64,000 nt of DNA from Candidatus Oxydemutator sp. (GTDB taxonomy: Bacteria > Pseudomonadota > Gammaproteobacteria > Poriferisulfidales > Oxydemutatoraceae): positions 1,952,001 to 2,016,000 of the forward strand of contig OZ241883.1 of the NCBI GenBank assembly GCA_965203445.1, written 5' to 3'. Shown piece after piece: positions 12,914 to 60,147 of this stretch (position 1 is the stretch's first letter; the number at the start of each line of letters is the position of its first letter). The notes below the pieces were generated by a model, which was not told the origin of the DNA, ran no database searches, and saw only the letters and a program-made list of their open reading frames with translations. A program made the translations under genes and the position numbers.

Positions 12914-13093
12914 ATGATAGTGAAATGGGATGAAAACACCTGCATTCATGCGGGCAAATGTGTCCAGGGCTTGCCCACCGTATTCAAAGTGGTGGACGGA
13001 AAATTCGAGATTGATCAGTCGGGCGCCAGCGAGCAATCCATCCGCGACCAGGTCGCCGAGTGCCCGTCCGGTGCGTTGACAATCGAAGAGTAA
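12914..13093 (+). CDS. Small divergent 4Fe-4S mono-cluster ferredoxin (YjdI-like), 59 aa
   Basis: Not in the ORF track. AGGAG RBS; MIVKWDENTCIHAGKCVQGLPTVF...CPSGALTIEE. Confidence 0.85.
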   Translation: MIVKWDENTCIHAGKCVQGLPTVFKVVDGKFEIDQSGASEQSIRDQVAECPSGALTIEE

Positions 13094-13303: not shown

Positions 13304-14383
13304 ATGTTCGATTTTTTCAGCCGCAAGAAAGACCATGACGCGGTAATCAACTCGCGCACCCGCGTCACCGTGAAGGCCGGACAGAACCTTCTGGCGGCGG
13401 CGTTGGAGGCGGGCCTGGACTGGCCGCACGATTGCCGCGTCGGCAGTTGCGGCACGTGCCGTTGCAGGCTGAAGGCCGGGAAGATAAAAGCGCTTTCCGA
13501 CTTCACCTACGTTCTGACTGGCGAGCAGTTGCGCGACGGCGTGATTCTGGCCTGCCAGGCGGCGCTCAAGAGTGACGTCGAGGTCGAGGTCGCCCTGGGG
13601 GACGGCCGCGCCGGGATTGCGACGCTGGAGCGGCGGGCCGTGCTGGCCAGGAGCAGAGCCTTGACGCACGACATCCTCGAGTTGACGCTGGCCTGCGACG
13701 AACCGCTTCCCGACGGCATCATCGCCGGCCAATACGCGGAGATCGGCTACCACGGCCTGAGCAAGCCGCGCTCCTATTCCTTTGCAAAGTCCCCCGCGAA
13801 CGAGGAGCACGCGCAGCTGACGTTCTACGTCCGCCACGTGCCGGGCGGGGAATTCACCGACTGGCTTTTCGCCGAGGACCGCACCGGCGCGCGCCTGACG
13901 GTCACGTTGCCTTTCGGCAGCTTTCACCTGCACGACGCCGACGCGCCGATGATCTGCATCGCCGGCGGCAGCGGCATCAGCGCGATCAAGGCGATACTCG
14001 AGCACGCCTGCGACGCCGGCGTCGCCCGCGACGTTTATTTTCTGTTCGGCGCGCGCGCGCAGCGCGATCTGTACTGCCGTGCCGAGATCCGCGACATCAA
14101 GGAGCGCTGGAACAAAGCCCACGCCTTCGAGTTCGTCGAGGTGTTGTCCGACGAGCCCGCGGACAGCGACTGGAGCGGGCCGCGCGGCTTCGTCACGGAG
14201 TATCTGCGCGCCTCTTATATCGAGTCGAAGCGTCTCGACGTGACGCAGTGCCAGGGCTATTTGTGCGGGCCGCCGCCGATGATAGACGCGGGCATCGAAC
14301 TCCTCACGCAATCGGGCATGCCTGAGGAGCGGATTTTCTACGACAAATTTTTGGATGCGAGCACTCTTCCCGGCGGGCGCTGA
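13304..14383 (+). CDS. 2Fe-2S/FAD/NAD(P)H oxidoreductase, XylA/CymAb-like monooxygenase reductase
   Basis: PHDCRVGSCGTC...LAC ferredoxin domain, RSYSFA, GGEFT, IAGGSGI, YLCGPPPMID, FYDKF. Confidence 0.88.
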   Translation: MFDFFSRKKDHDAVINSRTRVTVKAGQNLLAAALEAGLDWPHDCRVGSCGTCRCRLKAGKIKALSDFTYVLTGEQLRDGVILACQAALKSDVEVEVALGDGRAGIATLERRAVLARSRALTHDILELTLACDEPLPDGIIAGQYAEIGYHGLSKPRSYSFAKSPANEEHAQLTFYVRHVPGGEFTDWLFAEDRTGARLTVTLPFGSFHLHDADAPMICIAGGSGISAIKAILEHACDAGVARDVYFLFGARAQRDLYCRAEIRDIKERWNKAHAFEFVEVLSDEPADSDWSGPRGFVTEYLRASYIESKRLDVTQCQGYLCGPPPMIDAGIELLTQSGMPEERIFYDKFLDASTLPGGR

Positions 14384-18053: not shown

Positions 18054-18070
18054 GCACGGACTTGCGGCAC

Positions 18071-19621
18071 ATGCGCGAGGCGCGGACACAAGACAAAGTC
18101 GCAATCATAGATTTCGGCTCCCAGTACACGCAGCTGATCGCGCGTCGCGTGCGCGAGATCGGCGTCTATAGCGAGATTTTTCCGTACACCGCGCGCGCCG
18201 GCGAAGTGCGCGGGTTCGCCCCCAAATGCCTGATTCTGTCGGGCGGCCCCGAGTCGGTGACCGTGGGCGAGGCGCCGCAGCCCGGCTTCGACGTCACCTC
18301 CCTCGGCGCGCCGGTGCTCGGCATCTGCTACGGCATGCAGTGGCTGGCCTCGCACCTGGGCGGCAGGGTCGAGGCCGCCCGGCACCGCGAGTTCGGCAGC
18401 GCCGACGTCACGATCACGAGGCCGACGCGGCTACTCGGCGACGGCGGCGCCGGCGCGTTGCAGACGTGGATGTCGCACGGCGACCGCGTGACCGCGCTGC
18501 CGCCCGGTTTTGCGGGCGTGGCCCGCAGCCGCTCCTCGCCGATCGCGGCGATGGCCGACGAGCAGCGCGCGATCTACGGCTTGCAGTTTCACCCGGAAGT
18601 GGCGCACACGCCGCGCGGGCCGGAGATCCTGCGCCGCTTCGTGTGCGACGTCGCCGGCTGCCGGCGGAATTGGGTCGCCCGCGGCATCGTCCACGAGAGC
18701 GTGCGTCGCATCCGCGAGCGGGTCGGCGGCGAGCAGGTGGTGCTGGGGCTTTCGGGCGGCGTGGATTCCGCGGTCGCGGCGCTGCTGATACGCCGGGCGA
18801 TCGGCGATCAGCTGCACTGCGTGTTCATAGACAACGGCCTGTTGCGCCACGGCGAGCAGCGGCAAGTGCGCGATACCTTTTCGCGGCATTTCGGCGTGGA
18901 CTTGCGCGTGGTCGAGGCCGCCGACGTCTTTTTGAAAAAACTGCAAGGGGTGACGGATCCCGAGCAAAAACGCAGGATCATCGGCGCCCTGTTCGTGGAG
19001 TTGTTCGAGGAGCAGGCGCGCACCATCGAAGACGCGCGTTGGCTGGCGCAGGGCACGATCTATCCCGACGTGATCGAGTCGGCGAAGCGCCAGGGCGCCC
19101 ACCTCATCAAGTCGCACCACAACGTCGCCGGACTGCCGGAGAAGATGCGGCTGAAACTGTTGGAACCGCTCGCCGGGTTGTTCAAGGACGAGGTGCGCGC
19201 GGTCGGCGCCGAGTTGGGCCTGGCAGCCGAGTTTATAAGCCGGCATCCTTTTCCGGGGCCCGGCCTCGCGGTGCGCGTGATCGGCGAGATCGACGCCCGG
19301 GCGCTCGACCTGTTGCGCCGCGCCGACGCCGTCTTCATCGAGGAACTGCGCAGCCGCGGTCTGTACGAGCGGGTGGCCCAGGCGTTTGCGGTTCTTCTGC
19401 CGGTGCGCTCGGTCGGCGTCATGGGCGACGGCAGGCACTACGGGCGCGTCGTCGTGCTGCGCGCGGTTGAGACCGACGACTTTATGACCGCGCGCTGCGC
19501 CCGCTTCCCCGACGGTTTCATCGAGGGCGTGTCGCACAGAATCGTCAATGAGGTGCCGGGCGTCTCGCGCGTCTGCTACGACGTGAGCGGCAAGCCGCCG
19601 GCCACCATCGAGTGGGAATGA
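18071..19621 (+). CDS. guaA: GMP synthase (glutamine-hydrolysing)
   Basis: [38 protein letters not shown]. Confidence 0.98.
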
Positions 19622-20103
19622 GGCACCCGGCGCCCGGGCCGGCGCCCGAAGCGGCGCGCGACGATTTCCATTGTATGCGGCTTGCGTTGGCCGAGGCGCG
19701 CGCCGCCCAGCGCCTGGGAGAGGTGCCGGTGGGCGCGGTGGTCGTGCATCGGGGCGCGGTCATAGCGCGTGGGCGCAATACCTCCATCGCCGACGGCGAT
19801 CCGTCGGCGCACGCCGAGATCGTCGCGTTGCGCGCGGCCGGGCGCCGGCTGGCCAATTACCGCCTGAACGACGCCGTGCTCTACGTGACCCTGGAACCCT
19901 GCGTGATGTGCTTTGCGGCGATGGTGCACGCGCGCATCGCGCGCCTGGTCTATGGCGCGGCCGATCCGGCGACGGGCGCCTTGAGCGGCGCTTTTCAACT
20001 GGAAGGCCACCCGGCTTTCAACCATGCTTTTGCGGTGACCGGCGGCGTGCTCGAGGCCGAATGCGGCGGCGTGCTCAAGGCTTTCTTCGACGCCCGGCGA
20101 TAG
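19618..20103 (+). CDS. tadA: tRNA adenosine(34) deaminase TadA
   Basis: [23 protein letters not shown]. Confidence 0.93.
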
Positions 20104-20127
20104 CCGCCGGCGCGTCGCGGCACAATC

Positions 20128-21603
20128 TCACAGAGGCGCCGGCGCAACGGCGTTCAGGCGCGCCGGTCTCGGTATCCTGGTGGAAACGTCGCCTTCGAGC
20201 CGGTCCATCAGGCGCCGGTAGCTGCGGATGTTTCTGACGTAGAGCAGCGTGTCGCCGCCGCGCGGTTTGCCGTGGCGCGCGGCGCGGTACCAGCGCGGCC
20301 GTTGCAACAGGCGCAGCGCTTTTTTCAGATCCGGCCACGACGCGGGGTTGGCGCCTTGGCGCGCGGCAAGTTCCATCGCGTCCGCGGCGTGGCCGTAGCC
20401 GGAGTTGTACGCGACCAGCGCCAGCCACGTGCGATCCGGTTCGGGAACGCCGGCGGGAACCTTCTCCTTCATCGCCAGGAAATGGCGGGCGCCGCCGAGG
20501 ATGCTCGCGTAGGCGTCGGCGCGGTCTTCGACGCCGTAGTGTTCGGCGGTGTCGCGCGTCAGCATCATCATGCCCCTGACGCCGGTCGGCGACACCGCGC
20601 CGGGATCCCAGTGGGACTCTTGATAGGCGACCGCGGCGAGTAGTTTCCAGTTCACTTTGTACAGCGCGGCCGCGCGCCGGAATAGATCGCGATACTTGGG
20701 CAGTTCGGCGTCGGCCGATTCGAGAAAGGTGAGTTTGTCGGCGTACGCGAGCGGCGTTCCGTGCAGCTGGTGCTTGTCGAGCAGACGCTCGAGCTCGCCG
20801 TCGCGCTTCACGCCCTCGAAGAAATCCGCGACCGCCGCGGCCAGTTTCGTGGGCGCGTCTTGCCGCAACAGCCACGCCACCGGCAGCGCGCCCGGCACCT
20901 CGAATGCGACCTTGACGTAGGGGTAGAACGGGCGCGACGCCGCGAGTTCGCTCGAGTCGGCGATGGTGTAGCGGATCAGGCCGAGGTTGAGCCACTCGAT
21001 CAGCTCGTGCGAATCGGTGTTTTCGCGGACGTACCAGTCGCCGGCGGCGTGCGTCTTCTGCTTCGCCGCGGCCAGGGTCTCGAGGTGGCTTGGGTGGGGG
21101 CTTACGTCCACGTCTTCCAGCGCCACCGTCTCCAGCGCGGCGGGGGGCGCGTCGGGGTGGCGGTAGATGAACTGCTGGCTGACCTGGTAGTAGGGGGGCG
21201 ACGAGGCGAAGCGTTGTTCCAGCGTCTCGGTGACACTCAAGGCGCCGGCGGCGATCTGCACTTGGCCGTCCTCCAGCAGTGCAAGCGCCTCGGCGACCGT
21301 GACCGTCGGGATGATTTCGAGCGCGCCCTCGTATTCCGCCGCGAACGCCTCGAGCAAGTCGTGATCAAGGCCGACCGGGCGTTGCTCCAGCCAGTAGTAG
21401 CCGGCGGGGTTGGCGCGCACCGCGACCCTGACGCGCCCGGCGGATTCCTCCTCCTGCTCTGGCGCCGGCTGGTGGCCGCATCCGGCCAGGATCGCGGCGA
21501 TCAGAAATGCCGCTGTTTTCGGGGGGGACGTTTGCGCACGATGCCGCGCGTGCGCGCTGCGCTCTGATGTCTTGCATTTAATATGTGCTTGTTTATTCAT
21601 CAC
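20128..21603 (-). CDS. mltF: Membrane-bound lytic murein transglycosylase F (start uncertain)
   Basis: Substrate-binding domain plus SLT domain (YQESHWDP.AVSPTGVRGMMMLT, AYNSG.GH); next to tadA. Confidence 0.9.
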   Translation of the reverse strand: MMNKQAHIKCKTSERSAHARHRAQTSPPKTAAFLIAAILAGCGHQPAPEQEEESAGRVRVAVRANPAGYYWLEQRPVGLDHDLLEAFAAEYEGALEIIPTVTVAEALALLEDGQVQIAAGALSVTETLEQRFASSPPYYQVSQQFIYRHPDAPPAALETVALEDVDVSPHPSHLETLAAAKQKTHAAGDWYVRENTDSHELIEWLNLGLIRYTIADSSELAASRPFYPYVKVAFEVPGALPVAWLLRQDAPTKLAAAVADFFEGVKRDGELERLLDKHQLHGTPLAYADKLTFLESADAELPKYRDLFRRAAALYKVNWKLLAAVAYQESHWDPGAVSPTGVRGMMMLTRDTAEHYGVEDRADAYASILGGARHFLAMKEKVPAGVPEPDRTWLALVAYNSGYGHAADAMELAARQGANPASWPDLKKALRLLQRPRWYRAARHGKPRGGDTLLYVRNIRSYRRLMDRLEGDVSTRIPRPARLNAVAPAPL

Positions 21604-21613
21604 TTATTGATCT

Positions 21614-21645
21614 TTTCCGGCGACGGCGCCTCTTTCCGGCGACGG
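21614..21645. repeat. 13-bp direct repeat TTTCCGGCGACGG x2 (19-bp period) in the divergent mltF/monooxygenase intergenic region
   Basis: Copies at 21614-21626 and 21633-21645. Confidence 0.6.
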
Positions 21646-21786
21646 TGCACCGCATATAATTTAAGTTATAGTACGACCGCAAGCCCATCCCCCGATTCGG
21701 AGCGCTCCCTCTATATACTATGCCCCGGATTGTTCTTGTCACACCCTTGTTACATATAGGGTAATTTGTGCTACTATACCCCCCAT

Positions 21787-21814
21787 CAGATTACCACCCT
21801 CGTGGTGGTATCTG
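21787..21814 (+). promoter_or_regulatory. Stem-loop or inverted repeat in the monooxygenase leader
   Basis: CAGATTACCACC-CTCGT-GGTGGTATCTG, just upstream of the AGGAGG RBS (21832-21837). Confidence 0.45.
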
Positions 21815-21846
21815 GTAATGAGTAATTACCTAGGAGGTACTCGTTT

Positions 21847-23037
21847 ATGAAAAAACTCTTAATTAATACGCGCTACTTCTTCGCGCCTCTGTTAATCCTG
21901 GTTGCCATGTTCGGCGTAATGCTGGGTGGCATATTCAACTGGGTCGGAGTTGCGTTGCTGGTAGCGGGTATATTCATCGATACCGCGATGAAGTTTCAGA
22001 GTCGGGGTGCCGGAGTTGATGGAGATGGGAATACCCTGGGTATTCCAGCGCTGCAAAACGGCGTCATGTACATCATGCTTCCGGTGTTCGTCCTGCTCCA
22101 GGTCGTCCTGGCTTGGCGCATTTTCCAGTACGTCACGGGAGTTCCGGTGGAAGTAACCGGAATGCTGTGGGGCGTATTGCCGATGACGAACGGCATCACG
22201 GGTCTGGATCTGATCGGCGCCACGTGCTCCATCGGTATCTTTGCCGGCATCGGCATTATCTACGGCCACGAACTGTCCCATACCAAGGGTTTCGGGTTCA
22301 TCATCTCGAGGCTGATGATGGGGCTGTCCGGTTCGGCCCATTTCTGCTACGCCCACGTGTATAACCACCACCTGGAACTGGCGTCGGAAGATGATCCGGC
22401 GACGGCGCCGCGTGGCCGGACGATATACGGGCACCTGCCGCTCAGCTATTTCGGGCAGTCCAAGTTTCTGCTTGAGATGGAACAGGCGCGGCTGAAGAAA
22501 ATGGGGGTTCCGTTCCTGTCGTGGCAAAACCGTTGGATTCGCGGCTTCATGATGAGCCTGCCTTCCCTGGCCCTGTTCTTCTGGGCAGGAGGCTGGGTCG
22601 GCGTAGGCTGTCTGGCCATCGTGTGGATCATTTCCAATTTTGAACTGGAAGCGTTGAACTTCCTGGAGCACTACGGCTTGATCCGCGAGAAGGGACTGCC
22701 GATAGACTATCGCCATTCGTGGGATAACTCCACGGCGTTCACGAGCTGGTTCTTCATCGAGATTGGTCGCCAGGCCGATCACCACGACCGCGGAGAAACT
22801 CACTTCTGGGAGCTGGACGAAGTGGATGCGCCCAACACTGGTTGGGGCTACTTCACTTTGTTTGCCATGGCATTGGTTCCACCGCTGTGGAAGATGTACA
22901 TGAAAAAGCGGCTGGCTGCCTGGGATGAGCATCATGCGAGCGATGGCGAGAAGGAAATCGCCCGTCGCATCAACGAAAAAACCGGTTTCGCCGGCACGGC
23001 GAAACCAGGGGATACGCTCTCCGCGACCGCGGCGTAA
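21847..23037 (+). CDS. Membrane non-heme diiron monooxygenase, AlkB/XylM (fatty-acid-desaturase superfamily)
   Basis: Several TM segments; HELSH, HVYNHH, DPATAPRG, NFLEHYG, QADHH and ALVPPLW motifs; XylM-like C-terminus (WDEHHAS.GE..IARR.N). Confidence 0.9.
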   Translation: MKKLLINTRYFFAPLLILVAMFGVMLGGIFNWVGVALLVAGIFIDTAMKFQSRGAGVDGDGNTLGIPALQNGVMYIMLPVFVLLQVVLAWRIFQYVTGVPVEVTGMLWGVLPMTNGITGLDLIGATCSIGIFAGIGIIYGHELSHTKGFGFIISRLMMGLSGSAHFCYAHVYNHHLELASEDDPATAPRGRTIYGHLPLSYFGQSKFLLEMEQARLKKMGVPFLSWQNRWIRGFMMSLPSLALFFWAGGWVGVGCLAIVWIISNFELEALNFLEHYGLIREKGLPIDYRHSWDNSTAFTSWFFIEIGRQADHHDRGETHFWELDEVDAPNTGWGYFTLFAMALVPPLWKMYMKKRLAAWDEHHASDGEKEIARRINEKTGFAGTAKPGDTLSATAA

Positions 23038-23064
23038 TTCACGTCCGACTGGATGTCATAATTT

Positions 23065-23104
23065 CCCGCCTGCCCCGGAACTCTCGCCGGGGCAGGTGGG
23101 CTTT
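23065..23104 (+). terminator. Strong intercistronic hairpin after the monooxygenase gene
   Basis: CCCGCCTGCCCCGG...CCGGGGCAGGTGGG followed by CTTT. Confidence 0.6.
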
Positions 23105-23165
23105 ATGAGCGATTCGGTCAATACACTAAACAACATTTTCAGGAGTAACCTTTCAGGAGAAAATA

Positions 23166-23825
23166 ATGGCTGTTGGAGATAGCTTGCGTAACCGTGTCCA
23201 ACTGTGGGGCGCGCCCGGATGCGTGAATACGGCGAAATGCCTGTTCACGGCGGGAGAAAAAGGCATGGACGTGACGACGATAATGTTCGATCCCTCTTCC
23301 TCCGAAGTAAAGTCGAGATCGCCGCTTGGTCTCGGTCCTATACTTTGTCATAGGGATTTTGTGGTAGTCGGACACGTGGCCGTCATGTCGTACATGGACG
23401 ACAAGGGATTTGGACCGTCCCTGATGATTAGAAACGGAGTCGTCCGCGCGTTGCAGCATCAGTGGTCGCACTACACCACCGACGCCGTGCAGCCCGCGAT
23501 GGAAGCGGACGATGAAGGCGCGCTGGGAAGCGCTTTCGACCAGCTGAACGACCGGCTGAACGAGCGCGGCGGCAACATACGCGGCGATTTTATCTGCGGG
23601 GACTTTTCGCTCGCCGATATTCACTGGGCCGCGTGCGCGAACATGTTGATCGCCAAAGGCAAGGGTTCGATTGTGGACGGCCGCCCGGCCGTCGCCAAAT
23701 GGTGGGGCTTGGTCAAGGAACATCCGAGCACCAGCAAGGAGAACATCAGGGCATTCGAATGTATGCCGACCCAGGCGGATATTCAATCCAATACCCTGCG
23801 CGACATCAATATTCACAACAACTGA
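23166..23825 (+). CDS. Glutathione S-transferase-fold protein (divergent)
   Basis: SPLGLGPIL, YMDD..GPSLM and FICGDFSLADI (GST C-terminal N-cap motif); AGGAG RBS. Confidence 0.8.
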   Translation: MAVGDSLRNRVQLWGAPGCVNTAKCLFTAGEKGMDVTTIMFDPSSSEVKSRSPLGLGPILCHRDFVVVGHVAVMSYMDDKGFGPSLMIRNGVVRALQHQWSHYTTDAVQPAMEADDEGALGSAFDQLNDRLNERGGNIRGDFICGDFSLADIHWAACANMLIAKGKGSIVDGRPAVAKWWGLVKEHPSTSKENIRAFECMPTQADIQSNTLRDINIHNN

Positions 23826-23851
23826 AACCACCGGATAATAAGGAGACGCGA

Positions 23852-24046
23852 ATGTTCAAGATAGTGGTCGCAATGCTCGTATGGTCCGGAGCGCTGGGTT
23901 ATGGTCTGTGGATGCTGGGCGTCCAGAACCACATGCATGATCCGCTATGGGCGATAGGTACCGGACTGGCTTTGCTGATTGGGCTCATGGTCAACGTCGT
24001 GCTGTTTTCCAAACTGCACGGCAACAAACCATGGGAATGGTTCTAA
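23852..24046 (+). CDS. 64-aa two-TM membrane protein of unknown function
   Basis: AAGGAG RBS; MFKIVVAMLVWSGALGYGLWMLGVQNHMHDPLWAIGTGLALLIGLMVNVVLFSKLHGNKPWEWF. Confidence 0.75.
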   Translation: MFKIVVAMLVWSGALGYGLWMLGVQNHMHDPLWAIGTGLALLIGLMVNVVLFSKLHGNKPWEWF

Positions 24047-24077
24047 AATGATTTTTCAACAACTACGGAGAAGTATA

Positions 24078-25508
24078 ATGAAAAAATCACAAATGACGTC
24101 GTCAGCAGCAAAGGGTCTGGTTCTCACCGTCTCCTTTTTGCTGATGCCGCTGGCCGCGGTGGCGGGGCCGTATGGATACGACTTGCACAACGTGCTGTCA
24201 CCGAAGGCCGCCGGCATGGCGGGCACGACGATCGCGGGACCGGGAGCAGGCCCGGTCGAGGCGGTCTATGGAAACCCCGCCAACCTCGCCGATTTCTTCG
24301 TCTCGAGGACCGGACAGACTGCGGGAACGCAGTTCACGTTCGGGGCGACGTTGTACCATCCGGAGGCTATTGCGAAGCATGGGGATCGGAATGTAGCAGC
24401 CCCTGGAACTAATGCTGCTAATAACCCCTGTATCACGTGTTTGGCTGGAGGCGCAGCGTTTCGTGAAAGATCTCAGGCTGAATCTTATGCGGTGCCGCAG
24501 GTTGGCTTTACCCAGGATCTTTCCGGGCTCGGCATACCTGTTGTCTTAGGCGGCGGTTTGTCGGCGGTTTCCGGCATCGGTGTAGATTGGCGCAGCAATC
24601 CGAACGCATTGGGTGTCGGTGCCGAATTCATTGTACTGGGAATCAACCTGGGAGCGGGTTATGAAGTGTCCCCGGCTATGGATGTGGGTGTTGCGGCGAC
24701 TATCAGTTACGCGATGCTTGAAGCCGGTTTGGCCGGGACCTCTGGGCAAGCGCATGATTATGGGATTCGCGGCACTCTCGGGGCGGATTATCACCTGACC
24801 GACTCGACCGACGTCGGGTTTTACGTTCAGAGCGAATTGCGGCACAACTGGAATGACTTTGTTTTGCTGAGTAATGAACCGCTATTAAATGCTGGTGGTC
24901 AGCCGACAGGTTTCGGTCGTATTCAGGCTGCTCAATATTCTGATCTGGATATTGAGCAACCGGCTAACCTTGCCTTTGGCATTTCACACAAATTCACCGA
25001 TGACCTGCGTATTGCGGCTGATGTAATCTATAAAAAATGGAGCGAGGCCGCCTTCTGGGAAAGGATTTACCATGATCAGACCGCGTTCTCGATTGGTGGT
25101 GAGTATGACATGGGTCCTTGGACGTTTCGGGCCGGCTACGGTTATGCGAATGATCCGAACCGCGACACGCCGAAGGGTGGTGCATTAGAAGGGAATGATT
25201 TCATTTGTACTGGATCACCACCGGCCAATGGCGCATGCCTGCCGTTGGCTGGTCCGCTTGGTACTGCGGTGTGGAGCTGGGTTCAGGCGATGGAAGGTCC
25301 TGTCATTTATGAACATCGTGTCAGCGCCGGCTTTACGTACCATGGTTTCTTGGCGCCGTTCCTGAATCTGGATGTGCACGTCGCACATCAAATGCAGGAA
25401 GACAGAGACTTCAGTGTCCCCGATTTCGGTCCGCTTAATTTTACAGATCACACCGAACTCGACGTCCAGTCCTGGCACGGAGGCTTCGCGCTGACCTGGG
25501 CGTTTTAA
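24078..25508 (+). CDS. FadL/TodX/OmpP1-family outer-membrane hydrophobic-compound channel
   Basis: Signal peptide, AAGMAG...YGNPANL N-terminal hatch motif, amphipathic beta strands, terminal Phe. Confidence 0.82.
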   Translation: MKKSQMTSSAAKGLVLTVSFLLMPLAAVAGPYGYDLHNVLSPKAAGMAGTTIAGPGAGPVEAVYGNPANLADFFVSRTGQTAGTQFTFGATLYHPEAIAKHGDRNVAAPGTNAANNPCITCLAGGAAFRERSQAESYAVPQVGFTQDLSGLGIPVVLGGGLSAVSGIGVDWRSNPNALGVGAEFIVLGINLGAGYEVSPAMDVGVAATISYAMLEAGLAGTSGQAHDYGIRGTLGADYHLTDSTDVGFYVQSELRHNWNDFVLLSNEPLLNAGGQPTGFGRIQAAQYSDLDIEQPANLAFGISHKFTDDLRIAADVIYKKWSEAAFWERIYHDQTAFSIGGEYDMGPWTFRAGYGYANDPNRDTPKGGALEGNDFICTGSPPANGACLPLAGPLGTAVWSWVQAMEGPVIYEHRVSAGFTYHGFLAPFLNLDVHVAHQMQEDRDFSVPDFGPLNFTDHTELDVQSWHGGFALTWAF

Positions 25509-25531
25509 CTACTACTACGGAGGGCAGCACT

Positions 25532-25804
25532 ATGCCTAAATTCATCATAGAGAGGGAAATCCCCAATGCGGGTTCCCTGTCCCAATCGGAGCTGCAAGGC
25601 GTCGCTCAGAAGTCGTGCAGCATCCTGAAGGACATGGGGCCGCAGATCCAATGGGTCGAAAGCCAAGTCACGGACGACAAGGTGTACTGCACGTACATCG
25701 CTCCCGACGAGGAGATGATCAGAAAACATGCAGAAGCCGGCGGCTTCCCAGCAAACAAAATATCAATGGTAAAAAGAACGATTGACCCAACAACGTCGGA
25801 ATAA
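25532..25804 (+). CDS. DUF4242-family small protein
   Basis: MPKFIIEREIP, QWVES.VTDDKVYC.YIAPDEE.IR.HA..GGFPAN.IS. Confidence 0.85.
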   Translation: MPKFIIEREIPNAGSLSQSELQGVAQKSCSILKDMGPQIQWVESQVTDDKVYCTYIAPDEEMIRKHAEAGGFPANKISMVKRTIDPTTSE

Positions 25805-25852
25805 CATACGAGAGATCATCAACATGGTAATACTCATAAGGTAGCGTTCATT

Positions 25853-25890
25853 ATCGGGTTGTCTCTTTTCCAAGAGACAACCCGATTTTT
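25853..25890 (+). terminator. Rho-independent terminator ending the monooxygenase operon
   Basis: ATCGGGTTGTCTCTT-TTCC-AAGAGACAACCCGAT-TTTT. Confidence 0.85.
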
Positions 25891-25931
25891 ATGTACGATT
25901 CATCAAAACCCAACCAGATCGGAGAGCCAGC

Positions 25932-26349
25932 ATGCCAGAACATAAAACCACGAAAGTCCTATTCCTCTTTTTCATAATACTGTCCTTATCCGCCTGTAGC
26001 ATTGGCATTGGTAGCGGGCGGCTCTATACCTCACCAGGAGTATCTTTAGAAGGTGTTAAATCAATTTTTGGTAAACACTATGATGATATAGATGAGATGG
26101 CTGAGCAGGAGCAGATAGAAGATATTGATGCCCTTATCGCAGACATATTTGATGGAGACCCTAACTCTTTTCAAGAAGCGACAGCGGTTCGCTCTGTCTG
26201 TAAATCGGGAGATGCAAAGAAGCAGGCTTTGTCTCGGAGCTCAACAGACGATGAAGATGCAGAGAAGCAGGCTTTGTCTCGAAGCTCAACAGAGACGAGG
26301 ACATGCTATAGGAATGAATTGCAAAATCTTATCCTGGGTAGATCAGAAA
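25932..26349 (+). pseudogene. Lipoprotein of unknown function, 5' half (interrupted by the IS1595 element)
   Basis: Hydrophobic signal with LSAC lipobox; rejoins 28974-29494 in frame when the element and one TSD are removed. Confidence 0.85.
26210..26293 (+). repeat. Tandem duplication in the lipoprotein gene (45-nt period, 39 nt with 2 mismatches)
   Basis: Encodes DAKKQALSRSST / DAEKQALSRSST. Confidence 0.85.
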
Positions 26350-26376
26350 GGGAATTATATACTTAAATCTACAAAA

Positions 26377-26556
26377 TCAGCGTTTAACCAGTTTCCATTT
26401 CTGGTGTAATTCTTCTTCTGTAGGCTTCTTATTTTCGTATTTGGCACGCTTCTTTATCGGTTTGAGTAAAACCCCTTTTATCGCAGATTCAAACTCCTCC
26501 ATAGAGATGGGTTTATAATCATCCGGGTTAAGTCCTTTTGGTTTTTTGTCGGTCAT
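26377..26556 (-). CDS. 59-aa basic hypothetical protein inside the IS1595 element
   Basis: Not in the ORF track. AGGAG RBS; MTDKKPKGLNPDDYKPISMEEFESAIKGVLLKPIKKRAKYENKKPTEEELHQKWKLVKR; stop lies next to the TIR. Confidence 0.65.
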   Translation of the reverse strand: MTDKKPKGLNPDDYKPISMEEFESAIKGVLLKPIKKRAKYENKKPTEEELHQKWKLVKR

Positions 26557-26564
26557 ATGAACTC

Positions 26565-27875
26565 CTATGCCGTCTTTCTGCCAAAGGTTATCTTGCGTTT
26601 CAGCAATTTCTCGCGGGCGGCGATTTTGGCCATCAGGTAATCCATAGGCCTATCACCCTTTATACGATTGCAGTTGCCACATAGCAGTTGGTAATTGCCG
26701 TAGGTATCCTGCCCGCCCTTGTTCTTGGGCACTATATGGTCTATTTCCAGATTCTCGTAGTTGTCCATGCCACAGGCATTGCATATCTTGCCGTATTCCT
26801 TTCCCAATCTCTTCTTTACTTGCTTCTTGTTCTTGGCATCAACTATATCCGTTATCTCTATATCCGTTCTGATCGGCACATCGGTTCTATGGACAAAATC
26901 TTTGAACAATCCGGCTTCATCGGACAATCTATCCACTACCAACTCGGCAGACTTCTTTTCAATATCTATTCCTATCCATCTGCGTTGTAATTGTTGCGCC
27001 GCAACCATTGTTGTTGCACATCCACAAAAAGGGTCCAAAACCACATTGCCTTTGTTGCTGCTTGCCTTAATGATCCGTTCAAGCAGGGCCAACGGTTTCT
27101 GCGTGGGGTAACCCAAACGCTCTTTTGATGTCCTACCAACCGCGTCCATGTTCCAATAGTCCCTACAACCCGTCATTGTGTAATATCCCCGTTCGTCCTT
27201 ATACAATTTTATGTTGGTCTTTGAAAAAAGGATATTCTGATAGGTTCCATGCTCATCACTAAGCGTTTTGTTCTTCTTGGAATGTCTTAATTGCCCTGTC
27301 AGGTATGACCTATCTTGCGGTATGTTGAAATTGTATTTCTTGCTTTTGCTGTAAAACAAAATTACATCGTGCTTCCGGCCGAAGAATCTTTTACTTGCTC
27401 CACCAGTCCGATAACACCAAAGAATTTCATTCAGAAAATTATTCTTGCCGAATACTCTATCGCAGATAATTTTCAAGTAGTGACTTGCTGTTTGATCACA
27501 ATGTAAGTAAAGACTGCCTGTAGGTTTCAACACCCTATGCATCTCCAGTATTCTTTGGGTCATGTAAGTAAGATACGCCATCATCGCCTTGCTATGCAGT
27601 ATTTCTACTGCTTCTATATACTGAACAAGATACGGGTAGTCATTCACCATTCTTTCCAGGTACGCCTCGTCAACGTCCTTCCAACTCCACATGTCCTTGA
27701 AAGAAGCACCGGCCGCCTTGCTGCCTATCGGTGCCGAATAAAACCGCTTGCTATTGAACGGGGGGTCAAGGTAAATCAAATCAACCGATTCACTGTTCAT
27801 CCCGTTCAGCACGTACAGGCAATCCCCAGTGAACAAGATATTCCTTTGTAAATCAAGGGGTTGCCCCCCCCGCAC
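26565..27875 (-). CDS. Beta-class N6A/N4C DNA methyltransferase fused to a C-terminal HNH endonuclease
   Basis: DLIYLDPPF (motif IV) precedes YPTQKP..LL and VLDPFCGCATT (motif I). C-terminus CNACG...EIDHIVPKNKGG.D...N.QLLCGNCN..KG. Confidence 0.9.
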   Translation of the reverse strand: MRGGQPLDLQRNILFTGDCLYVLNGMNSESVDLIYLDPPFNSKRFYSAPIGSKAAGASFKDMWSWKDVDEAYLERMVNDYPYLVQYIEAVEILHSKAMMAYLTYMTQRILEMHRVLKPTGSLYLHCDQTASHYLKIICDRVFGKNNFLNEILWCYRTGGASKRFFGRKHDVILFYSKSKKYNFNIPQDRSYLTGQLRHSKKNKTLSDEHGTYQNILFSKTNIKLYKDERGYYTMTGCRDYWNMDAVGRTSKERLGYPTQKPLALLERIIKASSNKGNVVLDPFCGCATTMVAAQQLQRRWIGIDIEKKSAELVVDRLSDEAGLFKDFVHRTDVPIRTDIEITDIVDAKNKKQVKKRLGKEYGKICNACGMDNYENLEIDHIVPKNKGGQDTYGNYQLLCGNCNRIKGDRPMDYLMAKIAAREKLLKRKITFGRKTA

Positions 27876-27906
27876 TATATGTAGTAGGTGCCACGGGTCT
27901 GGCCGG

Positions 27907-28851
27907 TTATGTGGTTAGTTCTTTGTACGAGATGCGCTTGCCTCCCATGCCCTGCACAAGCGATTCCATCCGATCAATAGTATCCACTTCGCAGTTGCCC
28001 TCGTTCAGGCGGAACGAGAACTCATCCACATAGCGATGCAGATGTTTCTTGCTGACATGGTGGAAGGTGCCGTGCACGCCTCTTTTCAGCAACGCCCACA
28101 CCGACTCGATACTGTTCGTATGAACCATGCCATCTACATACCTATTAGCGGAATGGTTGATGGCTTCATGTGTGTATCCTTGTAGTCCCGTATAGGCGCC
28201 ATGCTCATCAGTGAACACTCTTGAACCTTTCTCAATATTATCGTAGATAACATTCTGTAAAGTATGTTTATCGGTGTTGCCCACCGGCATCGCCTTCACA
28301 CGGCCTTTGCGCTCACGCATACCAAGTACAGGTGTTTTGCCGATAGTTCCCCGTCCGGCCTTCAGTTTCTTGTTCTCATGCTTGTTCCGTTCCATGCCCC
28401 CTATGTAGGCCTCATCCACTTCCACAATATGCGACAACTTGAACTCCCCCTGCTTGCAGGCCTCGCGGATGCGCTGCAACATATACCATGAAGACTTTTG
28501 GGTGATACCCAACTCTTTTGACAACTGCAAAGATGATATGCCCTTGCGTGCCGTCAACACGGCATAGATGGCTATGGCCCATTTGCGAATCCCAATTTTG
28601 GATGCGTGCATAACGGAACCCGTCTTAACAGTGAATGCCTTGCGACAATCCTTATGCCAGTATGTGAACTTTTTGCCCTTGTACGGGTTGATATTATCCA
28701 TGCCCCCGCAATGCGGGCACACCGGCTTGCCCTCCCATCTTGAACGTTCAAGCCAGGCAACAGCCTTGCGCTCGGTGCCGAACATGGAAGACAACTCTAT
28801 TATGCTAATCGTATTTGCTATTCTTTTCATGGCTTTTCTCCTCTCAATCAA
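27907..28851 (-). CDS. IS1595-family DDE transposase (start may be 28830)
   Basis: N-terminal CPHCG zinc ribbon, HTH (ISSLQLSKELGITQKSSWYMLQRIR), VEVDEAYIGG, VFTDEH, HTNSIESVW, YVDEFSFRLN. Confidence 0.95.
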   Translation of the reverse strand: MIERRKAMKRIANTISIIELSSMFGTERKAVAWLERSRWEGKPVCPHCGGMDNINPYKGKKFTYWHKDCRKAFTVKTGSVMHASKIGIRKWAIAIYAVLTARKGISSLQLSKELGITQKSSWYMLQRIREACKQGEFKLSHIVEVDEAYIGGMERNKHENKKLKAGRGTIGKTPVLGMRERKGRVKAMPVGNTDKHTLQNVIYDNIEKGSRVFTDEHGAYTGLQGYTHEAINHSANRYVDGMVHTNSIESVWALLKRGVHGTFHHVSKKHLHRYVDEFSFRLNEGNCEVDTIDRMESLVQGMGGKRISYKELTT

Positions 28852-56237: not shown

Positions 56238-57476
56238 ATGGGAACACGCGCGCACGTTTGCGTACTGGGTGCCGGCATCGCCGGCGTGACCACCGCCTAC
56301 CGGCTCAACCAGGACGGCTTCGACGTGACCGTCATCGAGCGCCGCGCACGTGCGGGCATGGAGACGTCGTTCGCCAACGGCGCCCAGCTGTCGCTCGCGA
56401 ACGCGCTGCCGTGGGCGCTGCCGGGCATGGCCTGGAAGGCGACGCGGTGGATCTTCGACGAGGATGCCAGCCTGTTCATACGTCCCAAGTTGTCGTGGCG
56501 CGAGTGGTGGTGGATCGCCGGTTTTTTTGCGAACTGCCGCGCGCGCGCCGCCGACCGCAACACCGCGGCGTTGATCGGGCTGTGCCGTCGTTCGCTGCGG
56601 CTGTACCATGAGCTGATCGAGCGCGAGCGCCTGCACTTTGACTACTCCCGAAAGGGCGTGCTGCACTTTTATTGCGACCGCGCGGCGTATCGTGACGCAC
56701 GCCGCCTCGGCGCGCGCCTTGCGGGCGGCGAACGTCCGTGCCGCGTGCCCGTGGACGGCGCGCAGATAGTGCGCCTGGAGCCGGCGCTTGCGGCCGCGGC
56801 CGGGCGCATCGTCGGCGGCTTCTACGCCGAGGGCGACGCCACCGGAGACGCCCATGTATTCTGCAAGGAACTGGCGCGCGTCTGCGACGCGCGCGGGGTG
56901 CGCTTTCGCTACCGCACGCGGGTTACCGGGCTGGCGCCGCGGGCGGGCGAAGTCGTCGTCAAGATCGCGGACGACGGCGGCTGCGACGACGCGCTCAGCG
57001 CCGATCACGCGGTCTGCTGCCTCGGTTCGTATTCACCGCTGCTGCTGCGCACGGCCGGCGTATTCGTCAACGTCTATCCGGTCAAGGGATATTCGCTGAC
57101 GATAGACCTGAAGGACGCGGCCGCGCGCAAGGCGGCGCCGTCGGTGTCGGTGCTGGACGACGAACACAAAATCGTCGCCAGCCGCCTGGGCGACCGCCTG
57201 CGCGTCGCCGGCACCGCCGAGCTTGACGGCTACAACCTGGATATCCGCGAGCGCCGTATCGCGCCGCTGAAGAACTGGGTGCGCCGGCTGTTTCCGCAAA
57301 TCTCGCTCGAATACGCGGTGCCGTGGGCCGGGCTGAGGCCGGCAACGCCGTCGAATCTGCCGCGCGTGGGCGCCACGCGCCACCCGCGCCTGTGGCTGAA
57401 CACCGGTCACGGCAGCCTGGGGTGGACCTCGGCGATGGCGACGGCCGAGCAGGTGTCGTGTGCTATAATGAAATGA
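56238..57476 (+). CDS. dadA: D-amino acid dehydrogenase (DadA-like FAD oxidoreductase)
   Basis: GAGIAG, ETSFANGAQLS, YPVKGYSLT, WAGLRP.TP, NTGHGSLGWT. Confidence 0.85.
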   Translation: MGTRAHVCVLGAGIAGVTTAYRLNQDGFDVTVIERRARAGMETSFANGAQLSLANALPWALPGMAWKATRWIFDEDASLFIRPKLSWREWWWIAGFFANCRARAADRNTAALIGLCRRSLRLYHELIERERLHFDYSRKGVLHFYCDRAAYRDARRLGARLAGGERPCRVPVDGAQIVRLEPALAAAAGRIVGGFYAEGDATGDAHVFCKELARVCDARGVRFRYRTRVTGLAPRAGEVVVKIADDGGCDDALSADHAVCCLGSYSPLLLRTAGVFVNVYPVKGYSLTIDLKDAAARKAAPSVSVLDDEHKIVASRLGDRLRVAGTAELDGYNLDIRERRIAPLKNWVRRLFPQISLEYAVPWAGLRPATPSNLPRVGATRHPRLWLNTGHGSLGWTSAMATAEQVSCAIMK

Positions 57477-57502
57477 CTCCAGGCAAGCGACGAGGACGAG
57501 AG

Positions 57503-58240
57503 ATGTCGAGACGTTTTCATTTGCTGGTCGCAATAGTCGCAACAGGCGTATTGTGCGCGGCTTTTGCGGTTGTTGCGCAGCAGCGCGTGGTCGTGGGCGA
57601 CAGCGTCGAACGACCCGCGCCGGGATGGGGCGAACTCGGATACGAGCCGCCCACGCCCGGCACCTACGAACTTCCGGTAATTCGACCGGCGGCCGACGGG
57701 GCGGTGTTGCTTGAAGACGGTTCCGAGGCGAGACTGCGTTCCTATCTGCAGGGGAAAATCTCCGTCTTATCCTTCATCTACACGAGCTGTTCGGACGTCA
57801 ACGGCTGCCCGCTCGCGACCTTTGTGCTGCACTCGCTGAAAGGAGCGATTGCGCGCCACCCGAACCTGTCCGACAAAGTTCGTTTCATCAGCCTGAGCTT
57901 CGACCCCGAACGCGACACGCCCAAGGCCATGCGCGATTACGGACGCGACTTCAAGCAGGGAACGGCCGCCGAATGGCTCTTCATGACCACCAGGTCGGAC
58001 AAGGAATTGCGCCCGATACTGAAGGCTTATAGCCAATACGTGAACAAGGCGCGCGACGCCGGCGGCAACACCGAAATCGCCCATACCCTGCGCGCCTATC
58101 TGGTGGACGCCAGTGGCGACGTCCGCAATATATACAGCATAGACTTTCTGCACCCGGATCTGCTGATGGCCGACATAGAGACCATCATGCTGGACGAGAG
58201 TCGTTTATCGAAGAGGGACGCGCCCGGGAACGAGAGGTGA
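57503..58240 (+). CDS. SCO1/SenC-family copper chaperone (exported)
   Basis: FIYTSCSDVNGCP (expanded Cys motif), SFDPERDTP, IAHT..YLVD..G. Confidence 0.85.
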   Translation: MSRRFHLLVAIVATGVLCAAFAVVAQQRVVVGDSVERPAPGWGELGYEPPTPGTYELPVIRPAADGAVLLEDGSEARLRSYLQGKISVLSFIYTSCSDVNGCPLATFVLHSLKGAIARHPNLSDKVRFISLSFDPERDTPKAMRDYGRDFKQGTAAEWLFMTTRSDKELRPILKAYSQYVNKARDAGGNTEIAHTLRAYLVDASGDVRNIYSIDFLHPDLLMADIETIMLDESRLSKRDAPGNER

Positions 58241-59577
58241 GGCCCGAGCGCGCTCAGGGCCGCGTGCTGCTGGCATCGGCCGTGGTCGTCGTCGGGGCCA
58301 TCGCGATAGCCGCCGGGGCCGGGACCGAGACGGGGGCCGCCGACGAGGACTCGATACTAGGTTCCGGCGACTATAAGGAAGGCTATGAGTCGGATGAATA
58401 CCGGACTCGTTCGCGCAGTCTTGAAAGCCGCACCGGGCGGGAGGCCAACCTCTATGCGTTGATGCGCGACCCGCCGCTGGGGCTGCCGTCGCCGCCGTGG
58501 CCACGCCTGAATCCGCCGTCGCCGGACGCCATCGCGCTCGGGCGGCGCCTGTTCTTCGACCGTCGCCTGTCATTGAACAACACCATGTCGTGCGCGATGT
58601 GCCACGTGCCGGAGATGGGGTTTGCCCACAACGAGCTCAAGACCGCGGTCGGCTTCGAGGGCCGCAGTGGCAGGCGCAACACGCCGACCCTGCTGAACGT
58701 CGCCTACAAGACGATGCTGTTTCACGACGGCCGCGAGTTCTCGCTCGAAAATCAAATATGGTCGCCGCTGCTGGCGCGCAATGAGATGGCCAATCCGTCG
58801 GTCGGGGCCGTTATAGAAAAAATACGCCGGATCAAGGAATACCCGGGTATCTTTCAGAAGGTATTCGGCGAGCGCGGCGTGTCCATGGAGACCGTCAGCA
58901 TGGCGTTTGCCCAGTATCAGCGCGCGCTGCTGTCGGCGAATTCGCGTTTTGATCGCTGGCGCTACAACGGCGAGAAAAACCTGCTGAACGCCGAGGAGCA
59001 GCGGGGTTTTGCGATCTTCAACGGCGCCGGCGCGTGTTCGGCATGCCACCTGATCGGCGAGCGCCACGCGCTGTTCACCGACAACCAGCTGCACAATACC
59101 GGGATAGGTTTCGATACCTCGATGAGGAAGGCGGCACCGACCGAGCGCGTCCAGTTGGCGCCGGGCGTCTTCGCCGACGTCGATCGCGGCGAGATCGCCG
59201 GCATCGGAGGCCCGCCCACCAAAATCAACGACGTCGGACGCTACGAGGTGACGCAGGACCCGGGCGACCGCTGGAAATACACGACGCCGACGTTGCGCAA
59301 CGTCGCGCTGACCGCGCCGTACATGCACAACGGCGAGTTGTTGACGCTCGAGGCGGTGGTCGAGTTCTACGACCGCGGGGGCGTGCCCAATGAATCGCTG
59401 AGTCCGCTGATCCGACCACTCGGTTTGACGCCGGCCGACAAGAAAGCGTTGGTCGCTTTCCTGCAGACGCTGACCGGCGGCAATACCGCGGAATTGGTGT
59501 CGGACGCGTTTGCGGCGCCGGTCGGTGAACTGCGGCGCGACGATCCGTTCTGGGCAAACCAGCGCTTCGCGGAATAA
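58237..59577 (+). CDS. Di-heme cytochrome c peroxidase / MauG-like protein
   Basis: LGRRLFFD.RLS, CAMCH, RNTPT, CSACH, TPTLRNVALTAPYMHNG. Confidence 0.9.
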   Translation: MRPERAQGRVLLASAVVVVGAIAIAAGAGTETGAADEDSILGSGDYKEGYESDEYRTRSRSLESRTGREANLYALMRDPPLGLPSPPWPRLNPPSPDAIALGRRLFFDRRLSLNNTMSCAMCHVPEMGFAHNELKTAVGFEGRSGRRNTPTLLNVAYKTMLFHDGREFSLENQIWSPLLARNEMANPSVGAVIEKIRRIKEYPGIFQKVFGERGVSMETVSMAFAQYQRALLSANSRFDRWRYNGEKNLLNAEEQRGFAIFNGAGACSACHLIGERHALFTDNQLHNTGIGFDTSMRKAAPTERVQLAPGVFADVDRGEIAGIGGPPTKINDVGRYEVTQDPGDRWKYTTPTLRNVALTAPYMHNGELLTLEAVVEFYDRGGVPNESLSPLIRPLGLTPADKKALVAFLQTLTGGNTAELVSDAFAAPVGELRRDDPFWANQRFAE

Positions 59578-59580
59578 CCG

Positions 59581-60147
59581 GTGGCGTGCACAATACGCAA
59601 TGCGCCTGCAATCGCGATGGGCGTATGGCTATCCATCATCGCCGCCGTCGGCGCTCAGGCGGCGATAGCGGAGCCGGGCGCGAGGCTGTTCGATCCGATA
59701 CCCCCGGGGCAGAGCGCGCAAGGATTCTCTCTACCGGACGTGCACGGGCGCAGGCACACGTTGGAGGAGTATCGCGGACGCTTCGTGCTGGTCGCTTTCT
59801 GGTCGGCGAACTGCCTGATTTGCGTCGAGGAAATCGCCGACATGGAGGCCGCGTACCACTTGTTGCGCGGAGGCGATGCAGATGCCGCCTTCGAGATAAT
59901 CGCAATCCACGCGGGTGCCGAGTCGTCGAAGATGCGCGAGGTGCTGGCAGCCAGCGCGGCCAGCTACACCGTGCTGGTCGACGAAGATCTGGAGATGGGC
60001 GGCTGGGGCATCCCGGCGCTGCCGACCGTTTATCTGGTAAGCCCCGAGGGAGAACTGCTCTACCGTGCGGTCGGCGCACGCGACTGGGGAGCGCCACGCT
60101 TGTTGGATCTGTTGCGCTCGATCATGGATACTTCCTCGAAGCGATGA
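59581..60147 (+). CDS. TlpA/ResA-like exported thioredoxin
   Basis: FSLPD..G, FWSANCLICVEE, LPT.YLV..EG, GARDW. Confidence 0.85.
   Translation: MACTIRNAPAIAMGVWLSIIAAVGAQAAIAEPGARLFDPIPPGQSAQGFSLPDVHGRRHTLEEYRGRFVLVAFWSANCLICVEEIADMEAAYHLLRGGDADAAFEIIAIHAGAESSKMREVLAASAASYTVLVDEDLEMGGWGIPALPTVYLVSPEGELLYRAVGARDWGAPRLLDLLRSIMDTSSKR

Follow-up and report, generated by a model that had tools for sequence, protein, structure and literature searches.

A putative membrane-bound dimethylsulfide monooxygenase operon linked to methanethiol oxidase in marine gammaproteobacteria

Dimethylsulfide (DMS) is the main biogenic sulfur gas from the ocean and is mostly consumed by microbes. DmoA is the sole enzyme known to convert it to methanethiol, and this enzyme is missing from Methylophaga and from many bearers of the methanethiol oxidase gene mtoX. 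A five-gene operon at positions 21847–25890 of a 64,000-nucleotide stretch of DNA (hereafter the window) from Candidatus Oxydemutator sp. (assembly GCA_965203445.1, contig OZ241883.1, positions 1,952,001 to 2,016,000 of the forward strand) raises a related question: what is oxidized by a membrane-bound hydroxylase whose conserved companions include no alcohol or aldehyde dehydrogenase? The original prediction, made from the letters of the window, was that a heteroatom-bound methyl group is hydroxylated and formaldehyde released. This idea is supported by the present analysis, in which a link to methanethiol oxidase (MtoX, SBP56) narrows the list of substrates towards DMS-type methyl sulfides. 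On balance, the operon probably encodes a membrane-bound di-iron monooxygenase that acts on DMS or a very similar methyl sulfide and gives methanethiol and formaldehyde; the reaction is inferred from genes and genomes.

The five genes are intact and co-oriented on the plus strand. The first encodes an AlkB/XylM-like membrane di-iron hydroxylase of 396 amino acids (21847..23037), followed by a soluble protein of 219 amino acids with a glutathione S-transferase (GST) fold (23166..23825), a microprotein of 64 amino acids with two transmembrane segments (23852..24046), an outer-membrane channel of the FadL/TodX family with an N-terminal signal-like segment (24078..25508), and a small, soluble SCO4226-like (DUF4242) protein (25532..25804). 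The intergenic gaps are 128, 26, 31 and 23 bp, and a GGAG-type ribosome-binding site lies 5' of each start, that of the microprotein being the ATG at 23852 and not 23855, and that of the channel the ATG at 24078. An intrinsic-terminator-like hairpin with a 15-bp stem and a T-run (25853..25886, plus strand) ends the operon; a promoter scan 5' of the first gene found no site. The guanine-plus-cytosine (GC) content of the cluster is 0.549, as against 0.675–0.681 in mltF and guaA, the genes that flank it, and 0.635 in the whole window, and the source genome is a single contig of 2.38 Mb with 63.6% GC. These gene calls, the hairpin and the GC values bear out the earlier description of five co-oriented genes with clear ribosome-binding sites, a strong terminator and a GC content below that of the backbone.

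Both the sequence and the fold of the hydroxylase are similar to those of the AlkB/XylM superfamily. It matches the Pfam family FA_desaturase (4.5e-26; 92.6 bits, cut-off 29.7) and the solved AlkB structure 8sbb (2.6e-31, phmmer), and the sole Foldseek match in the PDB at E ≤ 0.001 to its AlphaFold2 (AF2) model (pLDDT, for predicted local distance difference test, 73) was AlkB-AlkG 8f6t, with a template modelling (TM) score of 0.68. Identity is 26.5% to XylM and 25–33% to plasmid-borne AlkBs, and relatives carry the database label 'alkane 1-monooxygenase'. In a maximum-likelihood tree (quick search, LG+G4) of 82 rows of the clade, four AlkB and two XylM sequences and one desaturase outgroup, the clade formed one group on a long branch (Shimodaira–Hasegawa-like approximate likelihood ratio test, SH-aLRT, 99), with XylM as its sister group (87) and AlkB separate from it (99); the tree is to be read with caution, having few references and long branches, with CymAa and MdpA not identified among the references. 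On these sequences, the enzyme falls within neither of the sampled characterized clades, in agreement with the earlier suggestion of a separate lineage, and its relatives appear as a third clade beside AlkB and XylM.

This clade also departs from its relatives at the metal site. According to the available part of a study of AlkB, two irons are bound through nine histidines in four motifs, which are reported to be invariant and indispensable (PMC10110569). Eight of the canonical histidines are kept in the hydroxylase (H141, H145, H170, H174, H175, H275, H312 and H313; ligands assigned by motif counting, not from coordinates), and the first histidine of the last box is Gln309, so that the site has eight histidines and a glutamine. 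The glutamine is found in 82 of 82 clade rows, the same position being histidine in all six AlkB and XylM references, and the motif G(R/L)Q(A/G)DHHDRGE recurs in 118 of 120 database relatives (66–90% identity). What seems to be new is thus a third clade with an eight-histidine-plus-glutamine site, the enzyme superfamily itself being known.

A scan of one genome per species gave 260 relatives of the hydroxylase, and the locus counts given here refer to the best 80 of these 260. The identical five genes in identical order were found in six loci (L001–L006, metagenome-assembled genomes of Candidatus Porisulfidus or Oxydemutatoraceae); hence, the arrangement is not a product of chance. Besides the window, the hydroxylase is accompanied by the GST-fold protein and/or the microprotein in 33 of the 80 loci, and conservation of the gene set elsewhere, on which the original prediction depended, was therefore found. 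A FadL/TodX channel is present in 21 loci, a reductase in 21, a ferredoxin in 15, a globin in 14 and an SCO4226-like protein in 10; neither an alcohol nor an aldehyde dehydrogenase belongs to the conserved gene set of the 80 loci. A fuller version occurs in Methylophaga (L054), where the hydroxylase is joined by a truncated globin, a Fer4_19 ferredoxin, a GST, a Fer2-FAD-NAD reductase, the microprotein, FadL, a globin, DUF4242 and an NMO-family protein, with a CbbQ/NorQ-VWA pair divergently upstream of the cluster; another version has three GST-fold genes in tandem. In the remaining loci the hydroxylase is alone, beside a MerR/B12-binding regulator and FabA (29 loci) or a metallophosphoesterase (13 loci).

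In four genomes, two hydroxylases identical in protein sequence were observed (L070/L072, L037/L038, L041/L047 and L059/L045), one copy lying on the MerR/FabA side and one in a GST cluster. This suggests a recent duplication, or gene conversion; as the stand-alone and clustered copies are identical in protein, both settings house the same enzyme. Some genomes hold three or four copies. In the 29 loci with a regulator, this is a CarH/LitR-like protein of the MerR type that has two B12-binding domains and is encoded divergently, some 1.2 kb upstream of the stand-alone hydroxylase, which suggests light- or B12-dependent control of that gene (MerR-adjacent loci: L031, L040–L044, L046, L048–L052, L055, L056, L058–L060, L063, L065, L069–L071, L073, L074, L076–L078 and L080). 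There is also a divergent paralogue set, with 54–58% identity and the order GST-fold protein, hydroxylase, microprotein (G263:C2:664095-666265; G536:C1:485056-487199).

The distribution of the hydroxylase clade follows that of MtoX. The class sample consisted of 400 scored genomes of Gammaproteobacteria with a completeness of 90% or more; of these, 46 had SBP56/MtoX and 17 (10 families, 13 genera) the hydroxylase clade, called at E ≤ 1e-60. All 17 carriers were among the 46, and SBP56 was present in 29 of the 383 genomes without the clade. The hypergeometric p for co-occurrence was 5e-18 by genome and 2.8e-13 by genus, values that are overstated since related genomes are not independent. G398 and G254, two of the 46, are unpublished genomes without the hydroxylase, and their removal changes nothing material. 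In Methylophaga, the hydroxylase was found in three of 37 genomes and SBP56 in exactly those three, on the same contig and 8–23 kb apart; because all Methylophaga are methylotrophs, the link is to mtoX and not to methylotrophy as such. The distance from hydroxylase to mtoX is about 5–18 kb in G442, G411 and G258. Among 50 further genomes behind the studied loci, 41 had SBP56, and the nine without it were eight bins of 0.6–1.1 Mb of unknown completeness and one 7-Mb bin.

In two separate families, the hydroxylase and mtoX are directly fused into one string of genes. L085 has, on one strand, a sensor kinase, a response regulator, the hydroxylase, a globin, a reductase, SBP56 and SCO1/MauG; in L086, the hydroxylase, a ferredoxin, a GST, a reductase, the microprotein, FadL, SBP56, SCO1/MauG and a TlpA-like gene follow one another on one strand. 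The enrichment in mtoX carriers that had been expected for such an enzyme was thus observed in the class sample, among the Methylophaga genomes and in the two fused lineages, and the hydroxylase clade is consistently linked to methanethiol oxidation, phyletically and physically, a link that is new. It also speaks for a DMS monooxygenase that the source genome has MtoX yet no DmoA-family gene, no luciferase-like (PF00296) gene being found in this complete genome. Its only MauG gene lies in the window, outside the operon, with SCO1 and TlpA-like genes (57323..60147, plus strand), which form a module 3' of mtoX in other genomes and here adjoin genes of the tetrahydromethanopterin (H4MPT) pathway such as mtdB.

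Two of the proteins encoded with the hydroxylase appear to be dedicated partners of no described function. For the microprotein, with its two hydrophobic segments, no Pfam or NCBIfam family was found, and the scores of an Atlas search were all ≤0.84. Its profile was found in 15 of 401 class-sample genomes, all among the 17 hydroxylase carriers, the two misses being the most divergent members (G150 and G377), and its gene is directly 3' of the hydroxylase in the divergent paralogues of G446, G263 and G536. The predicted complex of hydroxylase and microprotein had an interaction prediction score from aligned errors (ipSAE) of 0.75, as compared to 0.00 for the best control; no fewer than 78% of contacts agreed between runs, with a pLDDT of 79 or more for the partner. 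Of 80 solved complexes, 58 reach this ipSAE mark, and of 110 mismatched pairs 2 do so; these counts hold only approximately, since own alignments were used. The model supports, but does not show, that the microprotein binds the hydroxylase, of which it would be a membrane subunit.

For the GST-fold protein, all Pfam matches of the single sequence were below curated cut-offs, and a profile of 15 sequences matched the phi-class GST 5f06 at 2.9e-20. TM scores of 0.65–0.72 were obtained when its AF2 model (pLDDT 91.8) was superposed on GSTs of the phi and omega classes, and the thioredoxin-like N-domain and helical C-domain of the GST fold are present. Cys19, kept in at least 90% of the 15 sequences, aligns with the phi-class catalytic serine, and the glutathione-binding Glu-Ser pair is replaced by Gly69-x. 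Cys-type GSTs are known as thiol transferases or reductases rather than as conjugating enzymes. At a guess, and with low confidence, the protein may handle the hemithioacetal or methanethiol mixed disulfides. Its family profile (E ≤ 1e-30) was found in 14 of the 400 class-sample genomes, none of them outside the 17 with the hydroxylase; in their phyletic distribution, this protein, the microprotein and the hydroxylase are locked together. As a side observation, in L013 (10049–12023) and 13 similar loci the microprotein is followed by two more GST-fold paralogues and a conserved 146-residue protein of no known family.

The remaining two proteins could be assigned to families. The channel, with a hydrophobic, signal-peptide-like N-terminus, matches Toluene_X (47.2 bits, cut-off 29.7) and shows weak similarity to XylN (E 2e-9 over 91 amino acids). 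The SCO4226-like protein matches Pfam PF14026 (3e-26; 91.8 bits, cut-off 28.5), scores 14.8 against the NCBIfam nickel-binding equivalog, far under the cut-off of 125, and gave nothing meaningful in a search of the PDB; the search of NCBIfam yielded no match above the cut-offs.

It had been stated earlier that rubredoxin, reductase and dehydrogenases are all missing from the system. This holds for the dehydrogenases, and fails for the reductase. A Fer4_19 mono-cluster ferredoxin (12914..13093, plus strand) and a XylA-type Fer2-FAD-NAD reductase (13304..14383, plus strand) are encoded 8.5 kb upstream of the operon, behind msrB. The ferredoxin is 54% identical to the in-cluster ferredoxin of Methylophaga, and the reductase has 49% identity to its in-cluster counterpart in L054 and, over 335 residues, 42% to XylA of plasmid pWW0. 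A reductase was found at the same upstream spacing, 8.9–9.6 kb, in G069 and G059, and the in-cluster reductases of the 21 loci are homologues. By sequence similarity, the ferredoxin is the probable electron carrier and the reductase the probable electron donor of the hydroxylase. No rubredoxin was seen among the recurrent annotated genes of the related loci, of which no rubredoxin-specific scan was made, and the sole rubredoxin of the source genome is 324 kb from the operon; an AlkG-type partner was thus not found. A stand-alone Fer2 domain (genome C1:1364189-1364488), about 8 kb from mtoX, matches the Methylophaga reductase in its N-terminal 2Fe-2S domain with 58% identity.

These components suggest the following course of events, in which substrate, reaction and electron path are all inferred. 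The FadL-type channel would pass the hydrophobic substrate, DMS, through the outer membrane, and the hydroxylase with its 64-residue membrane partner would hydroxylate one S-methyl group, electrons presumably flowing from NADH to the XylA-type reductase and possibly on to the small ferredoxin. The resulting hemithioacetal would split spontaneously into methanethiol, passed to periplasmic MtoX, and formaldehyde, passed to the H4MPT pathway. Such a DMS monooxygenase would explain why the set has no alcohol or aldehyde dehydrogenase, why these genes strictly track mtoX, and how growth on DMS is possible for mtoX carriers that lack DmoA. The putative sister relation to XylM, a hydroxylase of activated methyl C-H bonds, fits as well. 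[quoted passage not shown]

Published expression data bear on this proposal. When growth of Methylophaga thiooxydans on DMS was compared to growth on methanol, both methanethiol oxidases were strongly up-regulated, and a 'fatty acid desaturase', a FadL-like porin and an NAD(P)H flavin reductase were strongly up on DMS alongside the MtoX genes (Kröber and Schäfer 2019; PMC6548844). It was also reported that the organism is without dmoA, that a DMS methyltransferase was not found, and that the DMS-cleaving enzyme was unidentified; the induced desaturase was interpreted by the authors as having a lipid-repair function (PMC6548844). Each of the three MtoX-positive Methylophaga genomes has 2–3 FA_desaturase genes, one of which is this hydroxylase; FadL and reductase genes are in the hydroxylase cluster of G001/L054 and G038/L084, and G036 is annotated for the hydroxylase only. 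The match is suggestive, and the DMS-induced desaturase, porin and reductase of the paper may be those of this cluster. In the available part of a 2026 review, only DmoA is named for the conversion of DMS to methanethiol (PMC13360808), and the Methylophaga DMS enzyme was still termed unidentified in a 2022 paper and in a preprint of December 2025. A published link of an AlkB-type enzyme to DMS or mtoX was not found in a literature search with subscription papers and supplements outside its scope.

Several points weigh against a DMS monooxygenase. In the class sample, 29 of the 46 SBP56-positive genomes are without the hydroxylase clade; mtoX lies within 7 kb in none of the 80 loci, and the single SBP56 gene of the source genome is 619 kb from the operon. 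In the source order, the hydroxylase is present in 51 of 53 genomes, SBP56 in 51 and the GST-fold protein in 50, including genomes of 0.9–1.2 Mb; since all three genes are near-universal there, their co-occurrence is uninformative, and the pattern, which fits a core pathway, discriminates neither way. The divergent genomes G150 and G377 have no detectable microprotein or GST, and G446 has the microprotein without a GST, so that neither partner is strictly required for the link to MtoX. DMS itself is small and crosses membranes, so why it would need a FadL channel is not evident. AlkB can sulfoxidize thioethers, so dimethyl sulfoxide (DMSO) is a possible product.

Further points of the same kind come from work on Methylophaga, with the reservation that assays built for a soluble flavin enzyme could miss a membrane-bound multi-component system. 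In earlier work, as cited in the available part of the expression study, M. thiooxydans grown on DMS was reported to show no activity of a DMS monooxygenase, and a methyltransferase was proposed (PMC6548844). The desaturase induced in that study may be another of the 2–3 FA_desaturase genes per genome. Assembled contigs of four RNA runs (X1–X4, one study) were compared with 20 kb, public runs having been searched with the Methylophaga cluster (L084:3100-13000). Depth over the mtoX region was 17,000–35,000 in X2 and X3 and 46–80 in X1 and X4, and the contigs with the hydroxylase cluster, of 6–137 kb, had one flat depth each (20–350; 180–350 for the long contigs), which excludes an MtoX-like abundance of the cluster. 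As evidence on induction, these contigs were rejected either way, because assembled contigs of flat depth cannot rank genes.

The alternative that survives best is that the same system acts on another methylated heteroatom substrate or carries out another reaction of DMS, the candidates being DMSO formation, dimethyl disulfide, methylthio compounds, methyl ethers and methyl halides. The chemistry would be the same as with DMS and is inseparable from it by sequence, AlkB being capable of both sulfoxidation and ether demethylation; the FadL channel suits somewhat larger hydrophobic molecules, and plain demethylation of DMS leaves the GST-fold partner with no clear task. Against this, the fusion with mtoX and the strict co-occurrence point to release of methanethiol, which methyl halides, methyl ethers and DMSO formation do not give, and the candidate genes were induced by DMS as growth substrate (PMC6548844). 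It is, hence, regarded as unlikely, while deserving to be kept in mind.

A good deal less probable is an ordinary hydrocarbon hydroxylase, AlkB- or XylMA-like and serving the catabolism of an alkane, alkene or methylarene. The AlkB-like fold and motifs, the XylA-type reductase, the FadL/XylN-type channel and the label 'alkane 1-monooxygenase' on database relatives would all be accounted for. However, the clade is distinct from AlkB and XylM as sampled and differs in its ligand set, the conserved set holds no alcohol or aldehyde dehydrogenase, the enzyme is a core gene in genomes of 0.9–1.2 Mb, and neither the co-occurrence with MtoX nor the operon fusion with mtoX would be predicted. Marginally more doubtful still is a lipid desaturase or hydroxylase that maintains the lipids of the membrane when methanethiol oxidation causes peroxide and thiol stress. 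Such a role would also account for the co-occurrence with MtoX, and it is in keeping with membership of the FA_desaturase superfamily, with FabA near the stand-alone copies in 29 loci, and with the authors' own reading of the DMS-induced desaturase (PMC6548844). The nearest relatives, however, are the hydrocarbon hydroxylases AlkB and XylM and not lipid desaturases, a dedicated outer-membrane uptake channel, like a XylA-type reductase, suits a substrate from outside, and the FabA neighbourhood is limited to closely related genomes. Alkene epoxidation, with the product opened by the GST-fold protein in the manner of the GST-using isoprene and styrene pathways, is very improbable: one to three GST-fold genes per cluster and the ability of AlkB and XylM to epoxidize alkenes speak for it, but it leaves the link to MtoX unexplained, a cysteine at the catalytic position with the Glu-Ser pair missing does not fit a conjugating GST, and downstream dehydrogenase or CoA-transferase genes are not conserved.

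The fuller clusters hold additional genes. Truncated (bacterial-like) globins are found inside them, directly 3' of the hydroxylase, in 14 of the 80 loci (examples are L054 8209-8610 and 12224-12706, and L085 9142-9504); it could be guessed that they serve oxygen supply, or sulfide or thiol binding. In Methylophaga, genes for a CbbQ/NorQ-type AAA ATPase and a VWA (NorD-like) protein are divergent from the hydroxylase (L054 3803-6712; L084 10668-13564). CbbQ/NorQ-VWA pairs insert non-haem iron into nitric oxide reductase and, by analogy, the Methylophaga pair may mature the di-iron site. Nitric-oxide chemistry, considered from the truncated globins, the NMO-family gene and the CbbQ/NorQ-VWA pair of Methylophaga, was dropped as an explanation because these genes lie outside the conserved core.

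The surroundings of the operon were compared with those in L001, of the same genus. That the operon is a recently transferred genomic island was rejected, as L001 has the cluster between mltF and the same downstream gene; the cluster of L001 is also low in GC (0.514, with flanks of 0.58–0.60). The operon thus occupies a chromosomal site that is conserved within the genus. The genome-specific insertion directly 3' of the operon comprises only positions 25900–31700 (GC 0.487) and is rich in insertion sequences (IS), and in L001 the operon is directly followed by the counterpart of the window gene at 31756. The insertion holds a fusion of an N6/N4 DNA methylase with an HNH nuclease (26565–27875, minus strand), transposases of IS1595 (27907–28851, minus strand) and IS4/5 (30801–31586), an IS3-type integrase (29978–30652), and an open reading frame of 144 amino acids of no known family with an internal repeat. 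No tRNA genes were found in the 64-kb window.

With a concrete candidate whose subunits and electron partners are defined, the question of the DMS enzyme in these bacteria becomes directly testable. Should the proposed reaction be correct, the hydroxylase would be a new marker gene for marine DMS consumption, and genes of marine and sponge metagenomes that now bear the label 'alkane 1-monooxygenase' would no longer be assigned to hydrocarbon degradation. An order of sponge-associated and pelagic sulfur oxidizers, including genomes of about 1 Mb, would then be an uncounted sink for a climate-active gas, and the enzyme would provide a natural Gln-for-His variant of the AlkB-type di-iron site.

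Among known systems, DmoAB of Hyphomicrobium sulfonivorans is comparable in its reaction, since DMS, O2 and reductant are converted to methanethiol and formaldehyde upstream of MtoX, as described in the available part of the 2026 review (PMC13360808), and the same is proposed here. DmoA, however, is a soluble flavin-dependent enzyme of the luciferase family, unrelated to the hydroxylase, which does not belong to PF00296. The mtoX-sco1/mauG clusters of Methylophaga and Hyphomicrobium contain the same string of SBP56, SCO1/MauG and TlpA-like genes that directly follows the hydroxylase cluster in L085 and L086 (PMC6548844, available part). In contrast, the available parts of the published descriptions of these mto clusters mention no hydroxylase as part of them (PMC5739008; PMC6548844).

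With AlkB and its rubredoxin AlkG (8sbb, 8f6t), the hydroxylase shares the fold and the four histidine-box motifs; it differs in its identity of 25–33%, its separate clade, and its eight of nine histidine ligands with an invariant glutamine. Unlike in AlkB-AlkG-AlkT, a rubredoxin was not seen among the recurrent cluster genes, the loci having received no dedicated scan. XylM/XylA with XylN, encoded on the TOL plasmid pWW0, is similar in superfamily, in its place as the apparent sister clade (SH-aLRT 87), in a Fer2-FAD-NAD reductase with 42% identity to XylA, in a FadL-family channel encoded alongside and, by the present proposal, in the hydroxylation of an activated methyl group. XylM itself is only 26.5% identical, lies on a separate long branch, and keeps a histidine where the window clade has glutamine. 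Unlike XylMA, the window-type clusters have no benzyl alcohol or benzaldehyde dehydrogenase genes; they add the microprotein, the Cys-type GST-fold protein, a ferredoxin and, in some cases, globins and the SCO4226-like protein, and they are tied to mtoX rather than to aromatic catabolism.

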